This document shows, piece by piece, positions 5,260-18,424 of a stretch of 64,000 bases of DNA; position 1 is the stretch's first letter; the number at the start of each line of letters is the position of its first letter. The stretch comes from an uncultured cyanobacterium (GTDB lineage Bacteria > Cyanobacteriota > Cyanobacteriia > Cyanobacteriales > Nostocaceae), in assembly GCA_963706595.1 (NCBI GenBank), contig OY970166.1, positions 1,824,001 to 1,888,000 on the forward strand, given 5' to 3'. The notes beneath the pieces were generated by a model, which was not told where the DNA came from, did no database searches, and saw only the letters and a list, made by a program, of their open reading frames with translations. A program made the position numbers and the translations under genes.

Positions 5260-6189
5260 ATGAAAGTTGTATCTATTATTAACTACAAGGGTGGAGTTGG
5301 TAAAACCACTATCACCGCTAATCTAGGAACAGAATTAGCCTGTAGAGGTTATCGAGTGTTATTAATTGATGCTGATCCTCAGTGCAGTTTAACATTTTCT
5401 TTTTTTAACTCTTCCGAGCAATTGGACTGGTTTGAAGAAAAAGAATTGACATTAAAAACATTTTTTACTTCATTAATAAAGCCTATTCCCAACCCCAAAT
5501 CATTTGGTGACGTGAGGGTGAAGGTAAGTAAAATTAATAAAAAAATACAAGAACAGGGTGGAAAAGGTTCATTACACTTAATTGCTTCTCACTTAAAATT
5601 AATTAATATTGATATGGAACTTGCTGGTATCTTGGCAGGTGGAATTGGTAGACATGAACAAGCATCAAGATACTTCAATTGTTTTAGTTCAATTTCTCAA
5701 GGATTAGAAAAATTAAAGTCAAGTTATGACTTTGTTTTAATTGATTGCCCTCCCAATTTCAATATTGTCACTAAAACATCTATAGCAGCTAGTAATTATA
5801 TCTTAATACCATCAAGACCAGACCATTTATCAACATTAGGAATATCCTATTTGAAGGAAAGTGTTATGGAGTTTGTCGAAGAGTATAATGACTATACAAA
5901 ACAAGCTAACATTTCAGTAATTTATCCTAAAATTATTGGAGTAATATTTACAATGGTAAAAGTTCATGCTGGGCAACCAATTAATGCTCATCAAAGATAC
6001 ATGAATAATGTTGTAAAAGAACAAGAACTAAAGATTTTTGATGCTTTTATTAGAGAAAATCAAACTACATTTGCAATAGCTCCAGAAAATGCTATTCCTG
6101 TTGTTTTAAGTGCGGCTTCACCATCACATATTGTTCAAGAACTTAAAGAACTGGTAGATGAATTTGAATATTTGATTAATTTAGATTGA
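5260..6189 (+). CDS. ParA/Soj-family ATPase (accessory, AT-rich)
   Basis: INYKGGVGKTT deviant Walker A, LLIDADPQ, LIDCPP. Confidence 0.85.
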   Translation: MKVVSIINYKGGVGKTTITANLGTELACRGYRVLLIDADPQCSLTFSFFNSSEQLDWFEEKELTLKTFFTSLIKPIPNPKSFGDVRVKVSKINKKIQEQGGKGSLHLIASHLKLINIDMELAGILAGGIGRHEQASRYFNCFSSISQGLEKLKSSYDFVLIDCPPNFNIVTKTSIAASNYILIPSRPDHLSTLGISYLKESVMEFVEEYNDYTKQANISVIYPKIIGVIFTMVKVHAGQPINAHQRYMNNVVKEQELKIFDAFIRENQTTFAIAPENAIPVVLSAASPSHIVQELKELVDEFEYLINLD

Positions 6190-7489: not shown

Positions 7490-10411
7490 GTGACAGAACC
7501 TGGAAGCTACAAAGATACGGTAAACTTACCCAAGACTAAATTCGATATGCGGGCTAACGCTATCAAGCGGGAACCTGAAATCCAAAAATTCTGGGCGGAA
7601 AATAACATTTACGATCGCCTATCCCAAGAAAACCCCGGCGAATTATTTATACTCCATGATGGGCCTCCCTACGCCAACGGCTCGTTGCATATTGGTCATG
7701 CCTTAAATAAAATTCTCAAAGATATTATTAACCGCTACCAATTACTACAAGGGCGTAAAGTTAGATACGTGGCAGGGTGGGATTGTCACGGATTACCCAT
7801 TGAGTTGAAAGTTCTGCAAAAGATGAAGTCGGCAGAACGGCAAAGTTTAACGCCTTTAAAACTGCGGGAAAAAGCTAAAGAGTTTGCCCTAGCTACCGTA
7901 GATGACCAACGGGAATGTTTTAAACGTTACGGCATTTGGGGTGACTGGGAGCATCCTTATCTGACTCTGAAGCCGGAATATGAAGCGGCGCAAATCGGTG
8001 TGTTCGGTCAGATGGTGTTAAAAGGATACATCTATCGCGGTTTGAAGCCGGTTCACTGGAGTCCTAGTTCTAAGACGGCTTTAGCTGAGGCGGAGTTGGA
8101 ATATCCAGAGGGTCACACTTCGAGAAGTATCTATGCGGCTTTTCCCATTACCGGGCTGTCTGAGGCTGCTAAACCTGTGTTGGGTGAATTTTTGCCCCAT
8201 TTGGGTGTCGCTATCTGGACAACCACTCCTTGGACGATTCCGGGGAATTTGGCTGTGGCGGTGAATGGTGATTTGAATTATTCTGTGGTGGAAGCGGAAC
8301 CCCACCCCCCAACCCCCTCCCCGCAAGCAGGGAGGGGGAGTGAAGAAGGGACTGACGGGGTAAGGTTCCGTTACCTTATCGTCGCCGCAGATTTAGTAGA
8401 ACGTTTGTCAGCTACCCTTTCCACTCAGCTAACTGTAAAAGCTACGTTTAAGGGGCAGGTTTTAGAACATTCTACTTATCGTCATCCTTTGTTTGATAGG
8501 GAGAGTCCGGTTGTAGTGGGTGGTGATTATATCACTACTGAGTCGGGTACTGGGTTGGTACATACTGCACCGGGTCACGGTCAAGAAGATTACATTGTTG
8601 GTCAGCGTTATGGTTTGCCGATTCTTGCGCCTGTGGATGACAATGGTGATTTTACTCAGGAGGCGGGTGAGTTTGCTGGGTTGAATGTTTTGGGTGATGG
8701 AAATCAGGCGGTAATTGATGCGCTGACTGCGGCTGGTTCTTTGTTGAAGGAGGAAGCTTATCCTCACAAGTATCCTTATGATTGGCGGACTAAAAAGCCG
8801 ACGATTTTCCGGGCGACTGAACAATGGTTTGCTTCTGTGGCTGGATTTCGGGATGAGGCTTTAAAGGCGATCGCTACTGTAAAATGGATTCCAGCCCAAG
8901 GTGAAAATCGCATCAGACCAATGGTGGCTGAACGTTCTGATTGGTGTATCTCGCGTCAGCGTTCTTGGGGTGTACCCATTCCGGTTTTCTACGATGAAGC
9001 CACCGGGGAACCATTGCTGAATGAGGAAAGTATCAACCACGTCCAAGGAATTATTGCTGAGAAAGGTTCTGATGCTTGGTGGGAAATGTCGGTTGAGGAG
9101 TTATTACCAGAATCTTACCGCAATAATGGCAAGTCTTACCGCAAAGGTACAGATACAATGGATGTCTGGTTTGATTCTGGTTCATCTTGGGCGGCTGTAG
9201 CTAAACAGCGTCCAGAGTTGCGCTACCCGGCTGATATGTATTTGGAAGGTTCCGACCAACATCGGGGTTGGTTCCAATCCAGCTTGCTCACCAGTGTAGC
9301 GGTAAATGGTATTGCACCTTACAAAACTGTCTTAACTCACGGCTTTGTTTTAGATGAACATGGGCGAAAAATGAGTAAATCTGAGGGGAATGTGGTTGAC
9401 CCCCAAGTGGTAATTAATGGTGGGAAAGACCAGAAAAAAGAACCCCCTTATGGTGCTGATATCCTGCGGTTGTGGGCTTCTTCGGTAGATTATTCTTCTG
9501 ATGTGCGTCTGGGTGGTAACATCATTAAGCAAATGAATGATGTTAGAGGCAAGATTCGCAATACAGCGCGGTTCTTGTTGGGTAGCTTGCATGATTTTGA
9601 CCCGGTAAAGGATGCAGTACCTTTGTCAGATTTGCCAGAACTTGACCGCTATATGTTACACCGCATGACTGAGGTGTTTCAGGAAGTTACCGCAGCTTTT
9701 GACAGTTTCCAATTCTTCCGCTTTTTCCAAACTGTGCTGAATTTCTGCGTGGTGGATTTATCCAACTTCTATTTAGATGTTGCCAAGGATAGATTGTACA
9801 TCAGTTCCCCGGATGCTTTCCGTCGCCGCAGTTGTCAAACAGTTTTGCAAATTGCTTTGGAGAATTTAGCACGCGCGATCGCACCTGTTTTGTGTCACAC
9901 TGCTGAAGATATCTGGCAATTTATCCCTTACCAAACACCATGCAAATCAGTGTTTGAAGCTGGTTGGTTGCAAGTAGATGAAAAATGGCGGAATCCTGAA
10001 TTGGCAGAATTTTGGCAACAAATCCGCAAAATTCGCGATGATGTGAATAAGGTCTTAGAACAAGCCAGGGGAGAAAAAATGATTGGTTCTTCCCTAGAAG
10101 CAAAAATTCTGCTATATGTCAAGGATGAGCAATTGCGTTCTGCGGTAAAAGCCCGAAATCCGGAAATTAGTAATGGTATCGATGAACTGCGGTATCTGTT
10201 TATCACCTCCCAAGTGGAAGTATTAGACTCTGCGGAAGCTTTGCAAGGTTTGAAATATGATTTGCAGTCTGATAGCTGGGGAATTGCGGTAGTAGATGCA
10301 GAGGGGAAAAAGTGCGATCGCTGTTGGAATTACTCCACCCATGTGGGAGAATCAGCAGAGCATCCCTTGCTGTGTGAAAGATGCGTTCCAGCCTTAGCGG
10401 GAGAGTTTTAA
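7490..10411 (+). CDS. ileS: Isoleucine--tRNA ligase
   Basis: HDGPPYANGSLHIGH, GWDCHGLPIE, WTTTPWT, EGSDQHRGWF, KMSKS, C-terminal CDRCW..CERC Zn motif. Confidence 0.98.
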   Translation: MTEPGSYKDTVNLPKTKFDMRANAIKREPEIQKFWAENNIYDRLSQENPGELFILHDGPPYANGSLHIGHALNKILKDIINRYQLLQGRKVRYVAGWDCHGLPIELKVLQKMKSAERQSLTPLKLREKAKEFALATVDDQRECFKRYGIWGDWEHPYLTLKPEYEAAQIGVFGQMVLKGYIYRGLKPVHWSPSSKTALAEAELEYPEGHTSRSIYAAFPITGLSEAAKPVLGEFLPHLGVAIWTTTPWTIPGNLAVAVNGDLNYSVVEAEPHPPTPSPQAGRGSEEGTDGVRFRYLIVAADLVERLSATLSTQLTVKATFKGQVLEHSTYRHPLFDRESPVVVGGDYITTESGTGLVHTAPGHGQEDYIVGQRYGLPILAPVDDNGDFTQEAGEFAGLNVLGDGNQAVIDALTAAGSLLKEEAYPHKYPYDWRTKKPTIFRATEQWFASVAGFRDEALKAIATVKWIPAQGENRIRPMVAERSDWCISRQRSWGVPIPVFYDEATGEPLLNEESINHVQGIIAEKGSDAWWEMSVEELLPESYRNNGKSYRKGTDTMDVWFDSGSSWAAVAKQRPELRYPADMYLEGSDQHRGWFQSSLLTSVAVNGIAPYKTVLTHGFVLDEHGRKMSKSEGNVVDPQVVINGGKDQKKEPPYGADILRLWASSVDYSSDVRLGGNIIKQMNDVRGKIRNTARFLLGSLHDFDPVKDAVPLSDLPELDRYMLHRMTEVFQEVTAAFDSFQFFRFFQTVLNFCVVDLSNFYLDVAKDRLYISSPDAFRRRSCQTVLQIALENLARAIAPVLCHTAEDIWQFIPYQTPCKSVFEAGWLQVDEKWRNPELAEFWQQIRKIRDDVNKVLEQARGEKMIGSSLEAKILLYVKDEQLRSAVKARNPEISNGIDELRYLFITSQVEVLDSAEALQGLKYDLQSDSWGIAVVDAEGKKCDRCWNYSTHVGESAEHPLLCERCVPALAGEF
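8295..8370. repeat. Dispersed palindromic repeat inserted in-frame in ileS
   Basis: TIRs cggaaccccacccc / ggggtaaggttccg; same family as the intergenic copies near 10420, 27319 and 37670. Confidence 0.8.
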
Positions 10412-10419
10412 TAAAATAC

Positions 10420-10462
10420 AGAACCTCACCCCCAGCCCCTCTCCTTAGTAAGGAGAGGGGAG
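10420..10462. repeat. AACCTCACCCC...GGAGAGGGGAG dispersed repeat (relatives near 10590-10633, 27319-27357, 27778-27868, 37670-37743, 52081-52120)
   Basis: Near-identical hairpin cccctctccttagtaaggagagggg at several intergenic sites. Confidence 0.8.
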
Positions 10463-10509
10463 AATATCAAGTCTGGTTGAATACTTCCCAATACTTTTTG
10501 GTTAAGGAG

Positions 10510-10539
10510 TGTAGAGACGTTCCATGGAACGTCTCTACA
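10510..10539. repeat. Palindromic repeat TGTAGAGACGTTCCATGGAACGTCTCTACA (relative at 24227-24256)
   Basis: Perfect 30-bp palindrome; degenerate copy elsewhere in the window. Confidence 0.75.
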
Positions 10540-10673
10540 AGAGTTTTCTGCTCACGAATTTGCTGAACCGAACAGTATTAGAATACTTCCTACTCCCCTC
10601 CTCGCTTGCGGGGAGGGGCTGGGGGTGGGGTCTTATGATTGTGGTAATCGTAACTAATTAACCGGACTTGATA

Positions 10674-11558
10674 TTACAACTTCTGCAACAACTCCTGAGT
10701 TAACTGAAAAAATGCTTTAGAACCAGATGATTGCGGTGCAGTTAACACAACCGGCATAAAACTATCAACAGCCTTAGCCACATTCATATCAACTGGTATT
10801 TGTGCCTTACAGATTTTATCAACACCGAAATCTTCCACAACCCGGTGCATAACTTGTCTGTAATATCTGCCATTTAGCAGATTAGAACTAGCCATACTAA
10901 AGACAATTCCCAACATTTTGATATTTATCTTCGCTTCATGTTCGTGACTGTCTTTTAATTGAGCGATACGTCTTTCTAATAGCTGAATACCTACAACTGA
11001 CAAAGGTTCTGGTTTAGCAGGAAGAATGTAGAAATCACTTGCAGCTAAAGCACTACGAGTCAATAAATTATAGCCAGGCGCACAATCTAAAATGATGAAA
11101 TCATATTCCTCGCGCACTGGTTTGATAATATTATTAATCAAGACTCTTTCAAAGCGATTCCAAACAGTTTCAAAATCCGGTTCACCCAAAGCAGTTGCTT
11201 GTTGATGCAGCATTTCTGAGACTATAAATTCATCGTATAAATCAATGTCTCCGGGTAATAAATCTAGCCCAGCAAGATTACAAACTTGAGATTTGATAAT
11301 ATCATGAATTGTCAGTTTTGCTTCTGGTTCAGGGTTGATAACTTGGTCTATCAAATATCGAAACGTCTTGCGTTGTTTGCGAAGCTTGGCAAAGTCTAAC
11401 GGCGACATTAAACTAAGCGTAGCGCTGATTTGGCTATCTAAATCGAGGACAAGCACGCGCTTACCATGATTTTTAGCTAAACAAGTCGCGATATTGACGG
11501 TAAGGGTGGTTTTACCAACGCCGCCTTTCATATTTGCAGTCGCAATTACGTATCCCAT
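10674..11558 (-). CDS. parA: ParA family ATPase
   Basis: NMKGGVGKTT, VLDLDSQ, ILDCAPG. Confidence 0.88.
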   Translation of the reverse strand: MGYVIATANMKGGVGKTTLTVNIATCLAKNHGKRVLVLDLDSQISATLSLMSPLDFAKLRKQRKTFRYLIDQVINPEPEAKLTIHDIIKSQVCNLAGLDLLPGDIDLYDEFIVSEMLHQQATALGEPDFETVWNRFERVLINNIIKPVREEYDFIILDCAPGYNLLTRSALAASDFYILPAKPEPLSVVGIQLLERRIAQLKDSHEHEAKINIKMLGIVFSMASSNLLNGRYYRQVMHRVVEDFGVDKICKAQIPVDMNVAKAVDSFMPVVLTAPQSSGSKAFFQLTQELLQKL

Positions 11559-11837: not shown

Positions 11838-14486
11838 TTAAACAGAAGGTATGCGAATATTTTTAGCGAATAAGCTTTGTAAGCGGTGTGTTTGAGCGCC
11901 CATTTGGTAAAGTAAATCACCTTTGCCTAACAGATAGGCGGCTGATGTTTCTGTACCTCCCAGGACAATTTTTGAGTCGGCTTCGCTAGCAGTTCGCAGG
12001 GCGACTCTTCCGGGTAAGTTGGAACGGATAATGGGGGTAACAATTCCGGCTTCTGGGCGTTGTGTGGCAATAATCAGATGAATGCCGGCGGCTCTGGCCA
12101 TTGCTCCCAAACGTTTTATACTTAATTCTAATACTTTGCGGATTTCTTTTTCTGCCATAAAGTCGGCATATTCATCAAAAATGCAGACAATTCGCGGTAA
12201 AATCTGGGAAGAACGTTGATTGTAGCTAGTTAAATCAGCACATTTGGCGTTCTCAAATTTTTGGTAACGAGATTCCATCTCTGCAACTAATTGTTCCATA
12301 AGTTCGACCGCGCGATCGCTATCTTTAACCACTGGTGAATATAACCAAGGCATTTTTTCAAACTCTGGAAATGTGACTCGCTTGGGGTCAACTAGGGCAA
12401 TTTTGAGATGTTGGGGAGAATGACGATATAGTAAACTGAGAAGGAGCGATCGCAAAAACTCACTTTTACCGCTTCCAGTTGTACCACCAACCAAAAAGTG
12501 ACAAGTATTCGGATCAGATAAATCAGCTTCTAGCAAATACCCCTCTATACTCACCCCCATTGCAATTTTTACAGGTACTGTGGGCGGTAAGAATTGCGGC
12601 TGAATATAGGCTTCAAAACTAGCAACTTGCCTATCTGGGCGTGGCAAATCAATACTAACATAACCAGCTTGGGGAGCAATCAAAGGCGGCTTTTCTAACC
12701 CCAACTGCACCTGTAAATCGGCTGATAATTTAATTATCGCATTAACTTTTACACCTTTTACACCCAGATGGGGTTTAAGCTTAACTCTGATAAAAGCTGG
12801 TCCCACAGCAGCCCCCAGGTAGTCAACACCAACATTAAAAGATTGCAGAGTCGTCACCAATTCTGCACCGATAACATCAGCATTTACAGATTCTGCTTCA
12901 TTCCTGATTATGGGAGTATCTTCTTCTATATTTTCCCCAGTCATATCTTGAGTAGAATTTGCATCTATACTCTTATCTTCAGAGAGTGAATTATCCACCT
13001 CATCTGCAACAGACGCAGTAAAAAAAGTTTGACACTTTTGCTGCTGGGGGCAAATTTCGCACAGATAAGATTGAGTTGTGGGTGGTGGCGCATTGGGTTG
13101 TGGTGGTTCCCAACTTAGCCATTGCTGCATCTGGAATAATTTGTGGGGAATCAATTGATTAACTGTATTTTCTAGCTGTTCCCAAGAGTATTTATATTCC
13201 TTAAACTCTGGTAAAACACAATAAACCGCCGAATCAACAGGTACTTTCTTCTTTTGCCATAGCATATAACTATAAAGTGAAACCTGGGCTAATTGTGATG
13301 ATGGGTCTACAGGCTGATAGGTTTTAAACTCTACCATACACAGACGATTTTGAGCAAAGTTAAAAACTAAACAATCAAATTCACCTCTTACCAGTTGCTG
13401 TGTGCCATCAGGTAAAGTAAAGTCATGCTCAATACTGCGTTCTTGAGATATAAAGGTGTTACTAATAACGGTTTCAGCATTGCAATACTGGCGATTAATA
13501 ATCAGCAATTCGGCAAAGCGTTTTATTAGTCCTTGTAAACCTTGCCAAACTTGTAGTAATGTTTGCCCGTGACTAGGGTTTTTATGGATTACTGTTTGCA
13601 GGTAGGGAAAAAATTCTAATTGATAAAATATTTGTTGCATTTGCGAGGAAACTTCCTCTAGCTTTAGCTGTCCTGCGGCTGGCTTTAATACTGCTTTGAA
13701 TCGTGGTTCAACCAGCGCTAATTTTACGAAATTATCTGCTAATTTATGAAAGGGGTTGCCAATACCATTAGCACTATTTGGTGGAAAAAATATGGCTTTG
13801 TCACCAAATTTATGATTTAAATAAAAAAGCCGTCCGCATTCAAAAGCAATTCTAACTTTAGTAACATTTAAAGGTGAATTTACAGATTTTTCTGTTATTG
13901 GATGTGAAATGTTATTTACCATATTAAAAATATTAGCTACAGTATGAGGTTCTGATATTTCTAGTAACTTTCTGTGTACAGCAGCCAAATAAACTGTATC
14001 CATTGCGGCATATTTTACTTGCTTTTGGCTCAGAGGACGCTTTCCCCAATCGCTGCTTCCTTCATCTGCATCGACATTGACAAAATGACAAAGTTCTGCT
14101 GCTAAAGTTTTAAGTTTTAAATTGGAAACTTCCAGGCGTTCACGAGTAATTTTTCTAGCTATTTGGTATGTACAAGTAATATTTTGTGCGAGTTTTTTGC
14201 CTAAATACTTGAGGTCAAAACCAGCATTGTGAAAAACCTTCTCAATATTGGAATTAATCATGATTTGGTTAATGAAATATTCTGCCAAATCAGGTTTATC
14301 TAATACATCGAGAAGATAAGCCGATACGCCTGTAGAATCTGTATGATCAGCCAATACCTGAATCAGCGATAATCTGGGATAGTGAGTAGTAAAATCGGCA
14401 ATTTCTGTATCTAACCACAGAGTTTTGTGAGATGTTAATGTGGAGATGAACTCCCGGATTTCTGTTGCTGTTGTCAGGTAGTGCAT
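11838..14486 (-). CDS. Fusion protein: DEDDy 3'-5' exonuclease + Cas4/AddB-like PD-(D/E)XK nuclease + FtsK/SpoIIIE ATPase
   Basis: Exo motifs LDTE, HNAGFD, YAAMD; nuclease motifs GEFD, VEFKT, QVSLY, with FECG and CEICPQQQKC cysteines; FtsK motifs GGTTGSGKS, IFDEYAD, IATQRP; no TM anchor. Confidence 0.85.
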   Translation of the reverse strand: MHYLTTATEIREFISTLTSHKTLWLDTEIADFTTHYPRLSLIQVLADHTDSTGVSAYLLDVLDKPDLAEYFINQIMINSNIEKVFHNAGFDLKYLGKKLAQNITCTYQIARKITRERLEVSNLKLKTLAAELCHFVNVDADEGSSDWGKRPLSQKQVKYAAMDTVYLAAVHRKLLEISEPHTVANIFNMVNNISHPITEKSVNSPLNVTKVRIAFECGRLFYLNHKFGDKAIFFPPNSANGIGNPFHKLADNFVKLALVEPRFKAVLKPAAGQLKLEEVSSQMQQIFYQLEFFPYLQTVIHKNPSHGQTLLQVWQGLQGLIKRFAELLIINRQYCNAETVISNTFISQERSIEHDFTLPDGTQQLVRGEFDCLVFNFAQNRLCMVEFKTYQPVDPSSQLAQVSLYSYMLWQKKKVPVDSAVYCVLPEFKEYKYSWEQLENTVNQLIPHKLFQMQQWLSWEPPQPNAPPPTTQSYLCEICPQQQKCQTFFTASVADEVDNSLSEDKSIDANSTQDMTGENIEEDTPIIRNEAESVNADVIGAELVTTLQSFNVGVDYLGAAVGPAFIRVKLKPHLGVKGVKVNAIIKLSADLQVQLGLEKPPLIAPQAGYVSIDLPRPDRQVASFEAYIQPQFLPPTVPVKIAMGVSIEGYLLEADLSDPNTCHFLVGGTTGSGKSEFLRSLLLSLLYRHSPQHLKIALVDPKRVTFPEFEKMPWLYSPVVKDSDRAVELMEQLVAEMESRYQKFENAKCADLTSYNQRSSQILPRIVCIFDEYADFMAEKEIRKVLELSIKRLGAMARAAGIHLIIATQRPEAGIVTPIIRSNLPGRVALRTASEADSKIVLGGTETSAAYLLGKGDLLYQMGAQTHRLQSLFAKNIRIPSV

Positions 14487-14516
14487 TGACTGAAATTTTA
14501 TAAGAAATAATTAACT

Positions 14517-16511
14517 TTAAGCAATCAAACAAATTAATTGGTCTTCTACCTTAGCTTTGTGGTTGATAATTTTTACTTTCCTTTCCTGACATAATAGGTC
14601 AATTAAGTGTTGAGTATCAGTTTCTTTTACATCAGGAAACTCTCTGGCTGCTTGTGAAATTAAAGTAGGAACACCCATGTAACCTTGGGTTTTGACTAGA
14701 TTCAATAAAAACTCTTTGACTGGTCTTAAATCTGGTTTTTCATTTTTAATAAATTTACTAGGTTTAGATTTAGGAACAATTTCTAAATCCTGCAATAAAA
14801 CACAATTTTGCAAAAGTTCAGACTGACGTATTAAAGTTTGCAATGTCTGCAAATTAATAGTTTTGTATCCAATAACTAATTCCTGCGAGAGTGCAGAATT
14901 AATCAAGTAATTGTAAGTAGCTAAGTAATGAACTGACTGAAGATTTGGTTTAATATGAATATGTTGAGTCTGGGAAAAAATCTGGCTGTAAATTTTATAT
15001 CCTGCAAGTTTTACTGTTCCTACATTACTAATTCTTATTAAGTAGAGTTTTTGGCAGAGATTTTGCTCAATTGCTCTTTGACAAGCATTCATCACATGAA
15101 AAAAACTTGCCATATTGGCATTTTCTGTCCATATTATTCCTATTCTTTCTCTTTGTTTAGGCTGTTGATAACTCAAGGAATAGCCAGTATATTTGCCTGA
15201 TATCAGTTTAGGTTTTACTAACTGTACTTCTAATGCTTCTAAAGCCACTTGCAACATCCGAATTAAATCAGGCGATGATAGCAAGGAAATTTTAGGTAAT
15301 TTTTCCTGAACTTTTTTATATTCTTGCTGCCATAGTAATTGAAACTCTGCTTGAGGATCTACTTTTGGTCTGCGACCATTAATACTATTTTTATATTTTT
15401 GATACTCACCCTTACCTAGAAGTAATGCATTTCTAGGGTTGGTTTTACCCCCTGGAAAATTGGTTTCTAAAATTTGGCGATTTAAAGGAGTAATAGGAGA
15501 TTCTGGTTGAGGTTTAGCTGCTTGATGTATTGCCTGTAATCTATACTGCCAAAGTGCCTCAGCTTGATTTAAGTCAATATTTTTAAGACTAACTAATTTA
15601 TCCATTCTAGCTTTATCAGACTGTGTAATACATTTCCAACTATGCCTCCAAGGATCTGTGACTATAGTAATTATAATTAGAAAATTCTGGATATTTTCAT
15701 TGTGAAGAGTAGTGTTTACATTAAATATTGCTTGTGGATTAGACAACCAATTTGGTATACTTTCAACCTGATCAAAACATAAAACAATTGGCTGAGTTGC
15801 AGTAGAAATCTTGCCAAAGTTTGCTAATATGTTTTTAGCTGCATCTTCTGTATCAATGCACTTTTTTATTTTTAAAGCTTGCATAGATTCTTCACTTAAA
15901 TCATCTCCTCGTAACCACTCACAGGCTAGGGGATAAAGTTCTGGATCTGTGAGGTAATGTAGAACTCCAAAAAAAATATCAGCATTATAAATGCTGGAAC
16001 TTTGATAGTTCTGCTTGAGATGTTTAATAAATTTTTGACGATCATTCAGCAATAATTCCCAAAAATTATCATTAAACAGCTTCTTTGTCAGGCTATTTTT
16101 TGTGAAAGCGGATAAACTTTTAAGCCAGAGAATTAACTGAGATTCTTGCTGTCCATCTGGTACTTGAATTAAACTATCTACTGTATAACGCAAGATATGT
16201 CGCCAGATGTAATCATTATCAACCCAAGGTCCTATATAAGCAAAAAAAGCTTTAGAATTGAGAGTGCGTTTTAGTCTACCTAAAAGATAGCTTTTGCCAG
16301 AACCTGAATCACCAACAAGTAAGATAGTTCTACTAAAATTATCTGTAGTTACTAAGTTGAGAACTTCTTCAATTTCAGTTATGGCTTCTTGATGAATTGA
16401 ATCAACTATAGCTTCTTTATCTTCGTCTTTGACCCAAAAATTCCCTGTCCTTGAATTTACACGGTCAAAGGGGTTAATTTCGCGCTTAATAATGTCGTCG
16501 ATAGATGCCAT
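14517..16511 (-). CDS. P-loop (AAA-like) ATPase, RcaG-like, with probable C-terminal winged helix
   Basis: Walker A GDSGSGKS, Walker B LCFDQVE; lies between the RcaD-like gene and the FtsK fusion. Confidence 0.75.
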   Translation of the reverse strand: MASIDDIIKREINPFDRVNSRTGNFWVKDEDKEAIVDSIHQEAITEIEEVLNLVTTDNFSRTILLVGDSGSGKSYLLGRLKRTLNSKAFFAYIGPWVDNDYIWRHILRYTVDSLIQVPDGQQESQLILWLKSLSAFTKNSLTKKLFNDNFWELLLNDRQKFIKHLKQNYQSSSIYNADIFFGVLHYLTDPELYPLACEWLRGDDLSEESMQALKIKKCIDTEDAAKNILANFGKISTATQPIVLCFDQVESIPNWLSNPQAIFNVNTTLHNENIQNFLIIITIVTDPWRHSWKCITQSDKARMDKLVSLKNIDLNQAEALWQYRLQAIHQAAKPQPESPITPLNRQILETNFPGGKTNPRNALLLGKGEYQKYKNSINGRRPKVDPQAEFQLLWQQEYKKVQEKLPKISLLSSPDLIRMLQVALEALEVQLVKPKLISGKYTGYSLSYQQPKQRERIGIIWTENANMASFFHVMNACQRAIEQNLCQKLYLIRISNVGTVKLAGYKIYSQIFSQTQHIHIKPNLQSVHYLATYNYLINSALSQELVIGYKTINLQTLQTLIRQSELLQNCVLLQDLEIVPKSKPSKFIKNEKPDLRPVKEFLLNLVKTQGYMGVPTLISQAAREFPDVKETDTQHLIDLLCQERKVKIINHKAKVEDQLICLIA

Positions 16512-16565
16512 AGTTAATTACCGTGAGAGAGCAAAATGATTTATGCAACACTAATTTATCTATTG

Positions 16566-17358
16566 TTAGTCCACTCTTATAAAGAACAAGGAACCACCAA
16601 CATTTTGAGGAATTCCAGCATTAATTTGTTCTGTAGTATAAGGTGTAGGATTCTAGCAATGAACTCAATTCAATTTTGTCAGTTCTTTGCAAGCGATACA
16701 GCGCCTGATCTAATTCATCTCGTGACAGGGGCGGTTGTAACTTCTGACGTAAATGAAAAATGGGTAAATAATTCTCTGTACCTATTTCTTTATCTAATTT
16801 CTGAATAGTTTGTAAGATATCTTCATCAGTGAGATGCTGAATTGGCTTGACTCGTAAATTCTGACGCAAAAACCGCAGGTAATTATTGAGTAAGTCCAGA
16901 TTGATGTTTGCTTTTCCTTCGGGGGTGTATTCATCCCGCAAATACTCAATTCCTCTTTGGGTTAGCCAAACCTCAGCTTGTGTCCTTTTCATTTTGATTT
17001 CAACTGAAATCAAGCCCCTATCACCCAGCGCTTTCAATATCGTGGTTCGTTCTGCTGCTTTGAGTGAGGTGATTTTGCTGGGGGCGATACCTGCACTTTT
17101 ACTTATCTTCTCCAGCACCTTGATTTCTTTATCTGTGATGGGTACTTGAGCCGAATCAAGTTTCAGCAGTGCCTGACCTGGAGCTAAAATTTTAACTGTG
17201 GCTATCTCACGAGAATAGTCTACCAGCTCGCGATCGCCTAAATTTTGACAAATTTTATCCTTACCCTTAAAACTTTTAAAGGGACTTCTACTCAGACTTG
17301 ACCGATAATTAGCACACCCCAACAAATTTAAAAGGAACTTTAACTCATTCGTATCCAT
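16566..17358 (-). CDS. rcaD: RcaD-like winged-helix DNA-binding protein; +1 frameshift near 16650
   Basis: MDTNELKFLLNLLGC...YLPIFHLRQKLQPPLSRDELDQALYRLQ. Removing one base gives a family-like end ...PTPYTTEQINAGIPQNVGGSLFFIRVD*. Name is from recall. Confidence 0.6.
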
Positions 17359-17476
17359 GCGTGTCAGCCTGCTTGTACATAACTCAACAATACTGTAGCT
17401 TGAATGGCACTAATTTACACATATTTTCCATAATAGCGATAATTGGTGCTATTAGCTACAGCCAGTTATGCAGACA

Positions 17477-18424
17477 TTAACCCCTGATTTGGCGCAACAC
17501 GTTAACAGCCTGACCCCTTAAGCCAACAGGTAACAACGACAAACCCAAGCCAGTCAAAGCCTTAGCAGTAGAAAAAGACCTCCCCGCCAAAACTAGTTCC
17601 TTCCCTTTTTGGGTTTCACCTTTCTCAATTAAACGCAAACCCAATACTAATTGGGCTTCAGCTAGGCGATTTTGTCTAACTTTTTCTAACTTATCTGAAT
17701 CAAACTGATAATTTTCTAAATACCGAATTTTATCAAATAAATAAGGAACTTCTCTATTAATACCTTGCTGCTCCGCATGGTATCTATATTCCATCAATAA
17801 CTCAGATAAATAATAACCTTTTTTATCAGCCAAAGCCAGCCGGACAAATAAATCATTATCTTCACAATTTTGAATATTGGGCAGCATAAAACCCACTTCT
17901 TGTAAAGTCTGACGACGAAATAAAGTTGCCCCAATTTGAAAACTTTGGTTGATAAAAACTACCTCTAATAAATTCTCTACTATCCCGGCTTTTAAATTAG
18001 CCCGACCCCAGCGACGAGAATTTTCCTGTGTCTTTGACTCATCCCGGATATTTTCAATATCAATTATCCAATGATCTGTACCCACAAAATCAATGCTAGA
18101 ATCTTGATCAAGTATTGCCGCAGTCTTTGCTAAAAAATTAGTTGTTAGCCGATCATCATCATCAAATTTAATAAAATATTCACCCTGCGCCGCATCAAAA
18201 CCAGAGCGCATATTATTGCTTTTACCAATATTTTGCGAATGACGGATATATTTAATCCGGTTGTCTGTGTACTGTGACATTAATTCAGGTGTGCCATCAG
18301 TTGAGCCATCATCACAAACAATTAGTTCAAAATCTTGATAAGATTGCTGAAGTACGCTTTCTATGGCGTAAGGCAGGAGATTTTGCCGATTAAATGTAGG
18401 AATGCAAACACTAATTTTAGTCAC
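17477..18424 (-). CDS. Glycosyltransferase family 2
   Basis: SVCIPTFNR, VCDDGSTD, KFDDDD, EDNDL. Confidence 0.9.
   Translation of the reverse strand: MTKISVCIPTFNRQNLLPYAIESVLQQSYQDFELIVCDDGSTDGTPELMSQYTDNRIKYIRHSQNIGKSNNMRSGFDAAQGEYFIKFDDDDRLTTNFLAKTAAILDQDSSIDFVGTDHWIIDIENIRDESKTQENSRRWGRANLKAGIVENLLEVVFINQSFQIGATLFRRQTLQEVGFMLPNIQNCEDNDLFVRLALADKKGYYLSELLMEYRYHAEQQGINREVPYLFDKIRYLENYQFDSDKLEKVRQNRLAEAQLVLGLRLIEKGETQKGKELVLAGRSFSTAKALTGLGLSLLPVGLRGQAVNVLRQIRG

Follow-up and report, generated by a model that had tools for sequence, protein, structure and literature searches.

A cassette of a winged-helix protein, an ORC-type ATPase and a nuclease-FtsK fusion

We detected three minus-strand open reading frames (ORFs) within positions 11838-17358 of a 64,000-nucleotide (nt) stretch of contig OY970166.1, the window of this study, which comes from an uncultured Nostocaceae cyanobacterium. 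Together these genes, here called g1, g2 and g3, are one cassette, a cyanobacterial rcaD-rcaG-nuclease/FtsK operon of the kind that genome comparison has predicted as "Orc/CDC6-coupled HerA/FtsK capture systems" (Rakesh, Aravind and Krishnan, Nucleic Acids Res 2024; PMC10853773). The genes are separated by 54 bases (g1 to g2, with g1 frame-corrected) and 30 bases (g2 to g3), and no terminator-like site was found in either gap. The genes and their parts, with residues counted in amino acids (aa), are:

16566-17358, minus strand: g1, RcaD orthologue, frame-corrected gene with three tandem winged-helix domains and a conserved C-terminal tail
16621-17358, minus strand: g1 ORF as called, 245 aa
16641-16651, minus strand: frameshift site in g1, where tblastn alignments of four orthologues switch frame
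14517-16511, minus strand: g2, 664 aa, ORC/Cdc6-clade AAA+ ATPase and RcaG orthologue, with Walker A GDSGSGKS (K73) and Walker B CFD-Q
15522-16394, minus strand: g2 AAA+ core, aa 40-330, from an AlphaFold (AF2) model, Foldseek and VIA-align
14877-15275, minus strand: g2 inserted alpha/beta domain, aa 413-545, candidate inactive restriction-endonuclease-like domain
14520-14765, minus strand: g2 C-terminal winged helix, aa 583-664, matching cullin WHB and the winged helix of MecI at Z 10-11.4
11838-14486, minus strand: g3, 882-aa fusion of a DEDDy exonuclease, a Cas4-like nuclease and a soluble FtsK
13959-14483, minus strand: g3 DEDDy 3'-5' exonuclease, aa 2-176, PF01612 at an E-value (E) of 9e-30, residues D26, E28, D91, Y159 and D163
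13017-13889, minus strand: g3 Cas4/AddB-like PD-(D/E)XK iron-sulfur (Fe-S) nuclease, aa ~200-490, from PF12705 in homologues and from motifs
12642-12872, minus strand: g3 FtsK-alpha, aa 539-615, PF17854 at E 5e-8
11841-12575, minus strand: g3 FtsK/SpoIIIE motor, aa 638-882, PF01580 over aa 638-811 at E 1e-41, with K674 (Walker A) and D771-E772 (Walker B)

The nuclease in the middle of g3 was recognized from its motifs (D371, E386-x-K388, Q401-xxx-Y405 and C217...C476-xx-C479-x5-C485) and from a weak Cas4_II match to this region (E 0.006); PF12705 was found in most of 120 homologues among the matches listed, with the window's own g3 falling below the Pfam threshold. Across 87 aligned trios, a set in which at least four contigs are present twice, the exonuclease residues D26, E28, D91, Y159 and D163 were each kept in 86 rows, the remaining row being gapped, the nuclease residues D371, E386, K388, Q401 and Y405 and the cysteines C476, C479 and C485 in 87/87 rows with C217 in 86/87, and the motor residues K674 and D771-E772 in 87/87. 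Domain searches, run with no transmembrane predictor, called neither a membrane domain nor a gamma domain in g3, whose chain ends with the motor. PADLOC SspH models matched aa 490-865 (E 8e-67), which is the C-terminal part of the protein only, and g3 is the only FtsK_SpoIIIE match above cut-off in this genome.

A stand-alone 324-aa ORF outside the window (G000:C1:1655258-1655791) is 56% identical to the exonuclease domain of g3, and similar stand-alone exonuclease-like ORFs, mostly of about 300-325 aa, occur in many sampled relatives; the fused exonuclease may have been recruited from such a stand-alone gene. The exonuclease part of g3 is not intact in the trios of two genomes (G038 and G200). 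ORFs of 1774-1815 aa in the cyanobacterial genomes G004, G196 and G198 match the motor of g3 only, at 37% identity, and their size agrees with that of SspH/DndH-type proteins (the PADLOC model has 1766 positions).

Profile searches with g2 gave matches to AAA_16, under the Pfam cut-off, and to NACHT, both sub-threshold. Its AF2 model, made from a 38-row alignment, had a predicted local distance difference test score (pLDDT) of 87.9 and a predicted template modelling score (pTM) of 0.89, and Foldseek returned 25 matches to it at E <= 1e-3, led by ORC3, Cdc6 and ORC4 (E 7e-5 to 1e-3). VIA-align gave Orc3 at Z 15.4 (root-mean-square deviation [rmsd] 15.2, 300 aligned) and Cdc6 at Z 14.1 (rmsd 4.0, 242 aligned), with further matches to TnsC (Z 13.5), MuB (Z 12.2) and BrxC (Z 11.5). 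The Walker B aspartate is followed by Q or N in 36 of the 38 alignment rows, a sequence feature that hints at a slow, switch-like ATPase. Between the lid and the C-terminal winged helix, the model carries an insert in the alpha-beta-beta-beta-alpha-beta order of the restriction-endonuclease fold, in which the alignment columns lack the (D/E)xK lysine and conserve G458, W461, E463 and R493. As modelled, the insert is a candidate inactive restriction-endonuclease-like domain; an ESM Atlas feature search with it gave scores of <=0.89 and nothing nameable, and hhalign against the g3 nuclease profile gave a probability of 0.2.

No family matched g1 in Pfam, PADLOC and NCBIfam profile searches. The AF2 model of an orthologue (L031, pLDDT 85.8) contains three winged helices, and VIA-align found winged-helix matches at Z 7-8.4 to aa 49-123 and 181-271, with MarR-type chains matching within 1-152; Foldseek returned nothing for this model at E <= 1e-3. 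In the window, the C-terminal tail of g1, YTTEQINAGIPQNVGGSLFFIRVD, is out of frame with the called ORF, and its end is at 16566. The four orthologues aligned by tblastn follow one frame up to 16651 and the other from 16640 to 16569, and the window has an extra base at 16651 relative to 4/4 related contig sets (one DNA and three RNA-library sets, none from this strain). The displaced tail is still open, with 17-18/24 positions identical to three orthologues and 13/23 to the fourth, and because it is open and so close to its orthologues, the one-base insertion, which is private to this window, is either a recent change or an assembly error. A search for sequencing runs of this strain found none, the best share of words being 0.30. 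Programmed frameshifting was also considered and rejected, since the extra base is missing in 4/4 relatives.

A preliminary description of this DNA, made from the sequence alone, had reported three co-oriented genes with the same two gaps, encoding a winged helix-turn-helix-like protein, a 664-aa Walker A/B ATPase and an exonuclease-endonuclease-translocase fusion, and had likened the first two to RcaD and RcaG. We find all of this borne out: ORFs and tblastn confirm the arrangement and gaps, the orthologue model shows the three winged helices, GDSGSGKS and CFD-Q go with an ORC/Cdc6 fold, and PF01612, the Cas4-like motifs and PF01580 account for the third gene, while the likeness to RcaD/RcaG agrees with National Center for Biotechnology Information (NCBI) naming and with the locus of protein P0125 in genome G205, described below.

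Conservation, exchange and loss of the cassette

We surveyed the phylum in an even sample of 201 genomes and detected full or near-full g3 in 24 of them, with g1, g2 and g3 adjacent in 22 of these 24 and the g1-g2 pair separate from g3 in G071 and G162; among the 73 genomes of the largest family sampled, g3 was found in none. A contig scan with one genome per species gave 320 matching stretches, and the 78 loci retained carry names including Nostoc, Scytonema, Tolypothrix, Fischerella, Rivularia and Dolichospermum. A further 72 loci have 3 kb or more of sequence upstream of g3, and in 70 of them g1 and g2 come immediately before g3; the exceptions are L081, which has no g1 match, and L085, where g3 is truncated and g2 is 6 kb off. 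This adjacency is far above chance. In Nostocaceae, the trio occupies one fixed locus between a GT2 glycosyltransferase gene on one side and a ParA-like gene on the other, with an isoleucyl-tRNA synthetase (IleRS) gene nearby:

10674-11558, minus strand: ParA-like ATPase, 294 aa, conserved downstream neighbour in Nostocaceae at 76-94% identity

Comparison with this neighbour revealed different histories within the cassette. Pairwise identity followed that of the ParA-like gene for g3 (Spearman 0.79) and g1 (0.72) and hardly for g2 (0.19), figures that, like the identities below, are descriptive because related genomes are not independent. Since g1 and g3 both track the neighbour's identity, they look vertically inherited on this sequence measure. 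Mean pairwise identity was 0.56 for g2, 0.64 for g1 and 0.71 for g3, and where g3 identity was 85% or more (136 locus pairs), that of g2 ranged from 0.44 to 1.0. The tree of g2 splits into three deep clades (support 0.94, 0.98 and 0.74), each of which mixes both main g3 groups, and the divergence between lineages covers the entire gene. Judged by these alignments, g2 consists of three deep lineages that are swapped between otherwise vertically inherited loci. Lone RcaG paralogues occupy the trio's locus in L065-L067 and precede g1 in L032; they group inside g2 clade A. At paralogous loci (L056, L057 and L058, also L059-L061), which have no FtsK gene, one or two RcaG-like genes come after an RcaD-like gene.

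The cassette is also lost. A strong FtsK-family match is present in about 35 of 61 Nostocaceae genomes and absent from about 26, three genomes of one genus retain only C-terminal g3 remnants of 120-214 aa at the conserved locus, and the same-genus genome G252 has intact g1 and g2 with g3 reduced to its first 186 aa, the exonuclease domain. From such sequence comparisons, the cassette appears dispensable, accessory and turning over. In relatives, a divergently oriented pair of genes stands in for g3 or for the whole trio: it fills the space of the lost g3 parts in G252 (L158 2478-4417), and the ParA fusion of this pair occurs at six other loci without intact g3 (L062, L063, L064, L066, L067 and L068). 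The product of the first gene is a ParA ATPase about 455 aa long that carries an HSDR_N nuclease-like domain at its N-terminus and is, at the other loci, 59-67% identical to the G252 copy, and that of the second is a 192-aa ParB_N/Rho_N protein found at five of the six other loci (40-68% identical over partial alignments), with no ParB_N match of at least 40% in L062. The pair was found in 0/21 intact-trio loci examined, and could be either a competing system or a selfish insertion.

We considered the 294-aa ParA-like neighbour as a fourth component of the cassette and rejected it. The gene is still present at the trio-less loci L062-L068, and because it is kept, at 84-95% identity, where the trio is gone, it is probably not part of the cassette. 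A second ParA-family ATPase gene lies at 5260-6189, less than 6 kb from the first and on the opposite strand, with IleRS between them. The IleRS gene (7490-10411) is atypical in composition, with a guanine-plus-cytosine (GC) content of 0.47 and a GC skew of 0.16 against flanks of about 0.34-0.42 GC. The spacer between IleRS and the ParA-like gene (10400-10677) contains short dispersed repeats, segments of which, some 25-90 bases long, are found dozens of times in G252 at 82-100% identity, and a palindrome of 13 pairs at 10510-10539 resembles a two-way terminator.

Upstream of g1, one further feature was noted:

17359-17500, minus strand: candidate promoter region; long contigs from a relative's RNA libraries stop here, about 140 bases before the g1 ATG

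In two of these contig records (15 and 19), the match stops at 17471 and about 30 loose letters follow. A promoter scan performed at chance level, with 20 sites where 20.7 were expected. Two RNA-library contigs of a relative, 6784 and 6783 letters long and from two studies, each cover g3, g2 and g1 and continue past 11600, 986 letters beyond the compared stretch, which would include the ParA-like gene if collinear. As DNA may be present in such libraries, these contigs prove neither transcription, a single transcript nor start sites, and are a weak hint that the three genes are co-transcribed.

Predicted contact between RcaD and RcaG and proposed function of the cassette

We modelled the complex of g1 and g2 with the pair from G205 (L153), which gave an interaction prediction score from aligned errors (ipSAE) of 0.72, against 0.01 for the best of three controls; the ipSAE mark was reached by 116/157 solved complexes and 2/215 mismatched pairs, counts that apply only roughly because custom alignments were used. 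Contacts agreed between runs at 77% or more, with partner pLDDT of at least 78. On the g1 side the modelled interface comprises residues 217-281, the third winged helix and tail, and on the g2 side it lies near Walker A (68-69), at 284-293 and 310-311, and in the lid (351-368). The model supports binding of RcaD and RcaG to each other through the third winged helix and tail of RcaD.

Independently of the model, the same tail varies with the g2 lineage. Among 74 loci, with duplicates dropped, we compared locus pairs whose g3 is at least 80% identical, 150 pairs sharing a g2 clade and 123 pairs differing in it. Identity of the g1 C-terminal tail was 0.83 within the same clade and 0.56 between clades, as against 0.88 and 0.80 for the third winged helix, 0.85 and 0.82 for the first and 0.82 and 0.80 for the second, and the parts of g3 showed no change between the two sets. 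This fits co-adaptation of the g1 tail with the g2 lineage, as far as sequence variation can indicate it. The frameshift in the window removes precisely this tail, which holds 6 of the 19 modelled g1 interface residues (273-277 and 281), so the cassette may be impaired in this genome by the g1 insertion, unless the extra base is an assembly error.

We suggest, with a probability of roughly 0.5, that the trio is a DNA capture-and-degradation machine against incoming DNA. RcaD and RcaG would form a complex through the third winged helix and C-terminal tail of RcaD, as the model predicts, with RcaG acting as an ORC/Cdc6-type ATP switch that also bears a winged helix and a nuclease-like insert, which is probably inactive. 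The complex would recognize a DNA molecule or feature and then recruit or license g3, which would assemble as an FtsK-type ring and pump double-stranded DNA, and the Cas4/AddB-like Fe-S nuclease and DEDDy 3'-5' exonuclease of g3 would degrade this DNA, together possibly on both strands. The target would most likely be incoming plasmid, phage or transforming DNA. The adjacency of the genes, the invariant active sites, the folds, the match to the published kind, the g1-g2 model with its co-variation, and the turnover of the cassette support this proposal, and the RNA-library contigs add a weak hint. The invariant catalytic residues of g3, the swapping of g2 lineages, the co-variation of the tail with the modelled contact, and the ParA/ParB-like replacement are new here.

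Several points weigh against a capture machine. RcaD reportedly binds a phycocyanin promoter and affects phycobiliprotein operons (Noubir et al. 2002, as cited in PMC2799420), and g1 and g3 look vertically inherited. The Nostocaceae locus is flanked by housekeeping genes, with no defence island; the flanks of eight trios and one lone g3 outside that syntenic locus contain 89 ORFs, mostly housekeeping, among which we detected no integrase, transposase or restriction-modification families. No modification enzyme or other evident self-protection was found in the cassette. PADLOC hidden Markov models (HMMs) gave domain-level matches only (SspH and mad8), both on the motor of g3, and no system-level match for g1 or g2, with the models used alone and without the pipeline's system rules. 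The co-variation of the tail could also reflect a recombination tract that took the adjacent end of g1 along with g2. Finally, the capture-and-defence function is a prediction from sequence here, as it is a prediction in PMC10853773.

These considerations also bear on the preliminary description, which had favoured DNA targeting by the trio over transcription control. Its preference agrees with catalytic residues that do not vary and with a distribution that is patchy and decaying, and is tempered by the housekeeping flanks and by a defence role that is only predicted. The checks it had proposed on co-conservation and patchiness went its way, with the trio adjacent in 22/24 and 70/72 loci, g3 in 24/201 genomes and a strong FtsK-family match in about 35/61 Nostocaceae, as did complex modelling for the g1-g2 part; its PADLOC check succeeded for domains of the motor and failed for g1 and g2 as a system.

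A separate question is whether the window's own cassette is a decaying relic, disabled by a real frameshift in g1. The extra base at 16651, missing from 4/4 related sequences, the loss with the tail of almost a third of the modelled g1 interface residues, and a same-genus genome without most of g3 speak for decay, but the base may be an assembly error, for which no run from this strain was found, the shifted tail is still open and orthologue-like, and g2 and g3 are intact. We regard a relic as doubtful, if well worth keeping in mind.

The trio may instead process endogenous DNA ends or maintain chromosomes, with g3 working like a fused HerA-NurA or AddAB and RcaD-RcaG as its loader, in tasks such as resecting breaks or clearing and trimming chromosome copies in polyploid filamentous cells. 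Such a role would suit the sole FtsK_SpoIIIE match over cut-off in this genome, which at 94% completeness has no RecC match and only three small PDDEXK_1 proteins, as well as the vertical descent of g1 and g3, the housekeeping flanks and the adjoining ParA-like gene, which may share the RNA contig. It would also suit the report, in a review, that cyanobacteria are mostly without true FtsK, their "FtsK" candidates being HerA-clade YjgR proteins (PMC7766704). Yet the cassette is dispensable, with about 26/61 Nostocaceae genomes showing no strong FtsK-family match, g3 remnants and truncations occur even within the same genus, the swapping of g2 lineages would be unusual for a repair factor, and the ParA-like neighbour persists without the trio. 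On balance we consider endogenous processing unlikely, though a genuine competitor. A bolder variant, which we rate as a long shot, is that the trio is a vertically inherited DNA-surveillance machine of filamentous cyanobacteria rather than an ordinary mobile defence set, in which the ORC-like ATPase, swapped among three ancient lineages along with the RcaD tail that binds it, licenses the FtsK-nuclease to destroy chosen DNA, maybe the cell's own surplus or damaged chromosome copies. If true, the light-acclimation phenotypes that have been reported in rcaD mutants would be connected with a motor that shreds DNA.

RcaD and RcaG could also be chiefly transcription regulators of phycobiliprotein operons, with g3 a mere neighbour or minor accessory. 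RcaD, a protein of 285 aa, was found to bind the cpc2 promoter and to alter red-light operons, RcaG is the downstream ATPase that may aid this binding (Noubir et al. 2002, as reported in PMC2799420), and a Lyngbya RcaD homologue bound DNA in gel shifts (PMC2799420); in addition, NCBI names the g1 orthologues "transcription factor RcaD". However, P0125, a 285-aa Tolypothrix protein of the published length of RcaD, is encoded with a 100% match in genome G205, where a g2 orthologue of 692 aa lies 33 bases downstream of it and, 23 bases after that gene, a g3 orthologue of 853 aa. The trio is adjacent nearly wherever g3 was found, g3 catalytic residues are invariant, the cassette occurs in genera with no link to chromatic acclimation in the data examined, and an rcaD insertion could be polar on g2 and g3. 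We find a chiefly regulatory role very improbable. It is scarcely credible that the trio serves an integrated mobile element in transfer or segregation, with an FtsK/TraB-type translocase: g3 has a weak match to the NCBIfam plasmid TraB model (E 2.6e-11, 42.7 bits against a cut-off of 800) and such neighbourhoods are called mobile in PMC10853773, but the flanks examined yielded no integrase, relaxase, transposase or repeat-bounded element, the locus keeps its place throughout Nostocaceae, and two active nucleases would destroy the cargo.

If the trio is a DNA capture-and-degradation machine, genes filed for twenty years as chromatic-acclimation regulators would be the recognition half of a nuclease-armed DNA pump, and old rcaD phenotypes would have to be looked at afresh, with polar effects on g2 and g3 as one possibility to consider. 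With its 320 matching stretches the cassette is widespread; bloom-forming and symbiotic Nostocales carry it, and it could restrict the uptake of plasmids and make its hosts less genetically tractable. It would offer an experimentally reachable example of predicted "HerA/FtsK capture", with truncations and the ParA/ParB-like replacement cassette as natural knock-outs, and the natural allele swaps of the ORC-like subunit could reveal the basis of specificity.

Comparison with known systems

Like cellular FtsK and SpoIIIE, g3 has FtsK-alpha and a motor, but its N-terminus is an exonuclease in place of a membrane anchor, it has no gamma domain, many relatives are without it, and it scores 148 bits against the FtsK equivalog, whose cut-off is 1566. 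In HerA-NurA and AddAB/RecBCD, both DNA strands are degraded by nucleases coupled to a ring or helicase motor; the Fe-S PD-(D/E)XK nuclease type is common to AddB and Cas4. The trio, which carries an FtsK-type motor and both nucleases on one chain, may work like these machines by analogy only; it is without NurA, a helicase or a known Chi-type control, and we do not claim membership. DndFGH and SspFGH resemble the trio in having an FtsK/HerA motor on a large nuclease-bearing protein with ATPase and DNA-binding partners, but the motor of g3 alone matches SspH and the cassette contains no phosphorothioate genes. Neither g1 nor g2 matched an SspF/SspG or DndF/DndG model at E <= 0.01, and a g2 paralogue had a DndF match confined to the P-loop (E 2.5e-4).

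With RcaD and RcaG of Calothrix/Tolypothrix PCC 7601, the relationship is orthology to g1 and g2, and we take P0125 as a candidate for the RcaD of 2002. The G205 trio lies between the same glycosyltransferase and ParA-like genes as elsewhere in Nostocaceae, and the window is 68% (g1), 67% (g2) and 75% (g3) identical to it. Because G205 has P0125 followed by g2 and g3 orthologues, the published RcaD-RcaG pair would be the first two-thirds of the trio; in the account of PMC2799420, the pair are chromatic-acclimation regulators and a third gene is not mentioned.

The preliminary description had not recognized the trio as a named system and took it to be undescribed, which does not stand, as the architecture matches the Orc/CDC6-coupled HerA/FtsK capture systems of PMC10853773. 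That paper did not appear among the results of a literature search for RcaD/RcaG, and its main text names neither cyanobacteria nor Nostoc, though its supplement may list these loci. The capture systems are proposed to intercept invading DNA, a prediction for which that text reports no test. They differ from the trio, as described there, in having mobile neighbourhoods, whereas the trio's locus is fixed with housekeeping flanks, even if presence/absence and allele swapping occur, and in having a rapidly evolving winged-helix protein, whereas in the trio g2 is the fast, swapped part. The multi-winged-helix protein is said in PMC10853773 to be related to DndG/SspB/FokI; no specific likeness to these was found among the listed structure matches of the g1-orthologue model, though one may exist. 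As set out in PMC10853773, the capture ATPase is an Orc/CDC6 protein with an inactive nuclease inserted before its winged helix, accompanied by an active nuclease and a HerA/FtsK domain, in some cases with FtsK-alpha, and subsets of the systems have a protein of 2-4 winged helices or a 3'-5' exonuclease fused to the FtsK component. The trio has counterparts of most of these parts: an ORC/Cdc6 AAA+ ATPase with a C-terminal winged helix (Z 10.3-11.4), an active restriction-endonuclease-fold nuclease, an FtsK motor with FtsK-alpha, and an exonuclease fused to the FtsK component. The domain inserted in its ATPase is a candidate for the inactive nuclease, and g1, a separate protein modelled with three winged helices, is a candidate for the multi-winged-helix protein.

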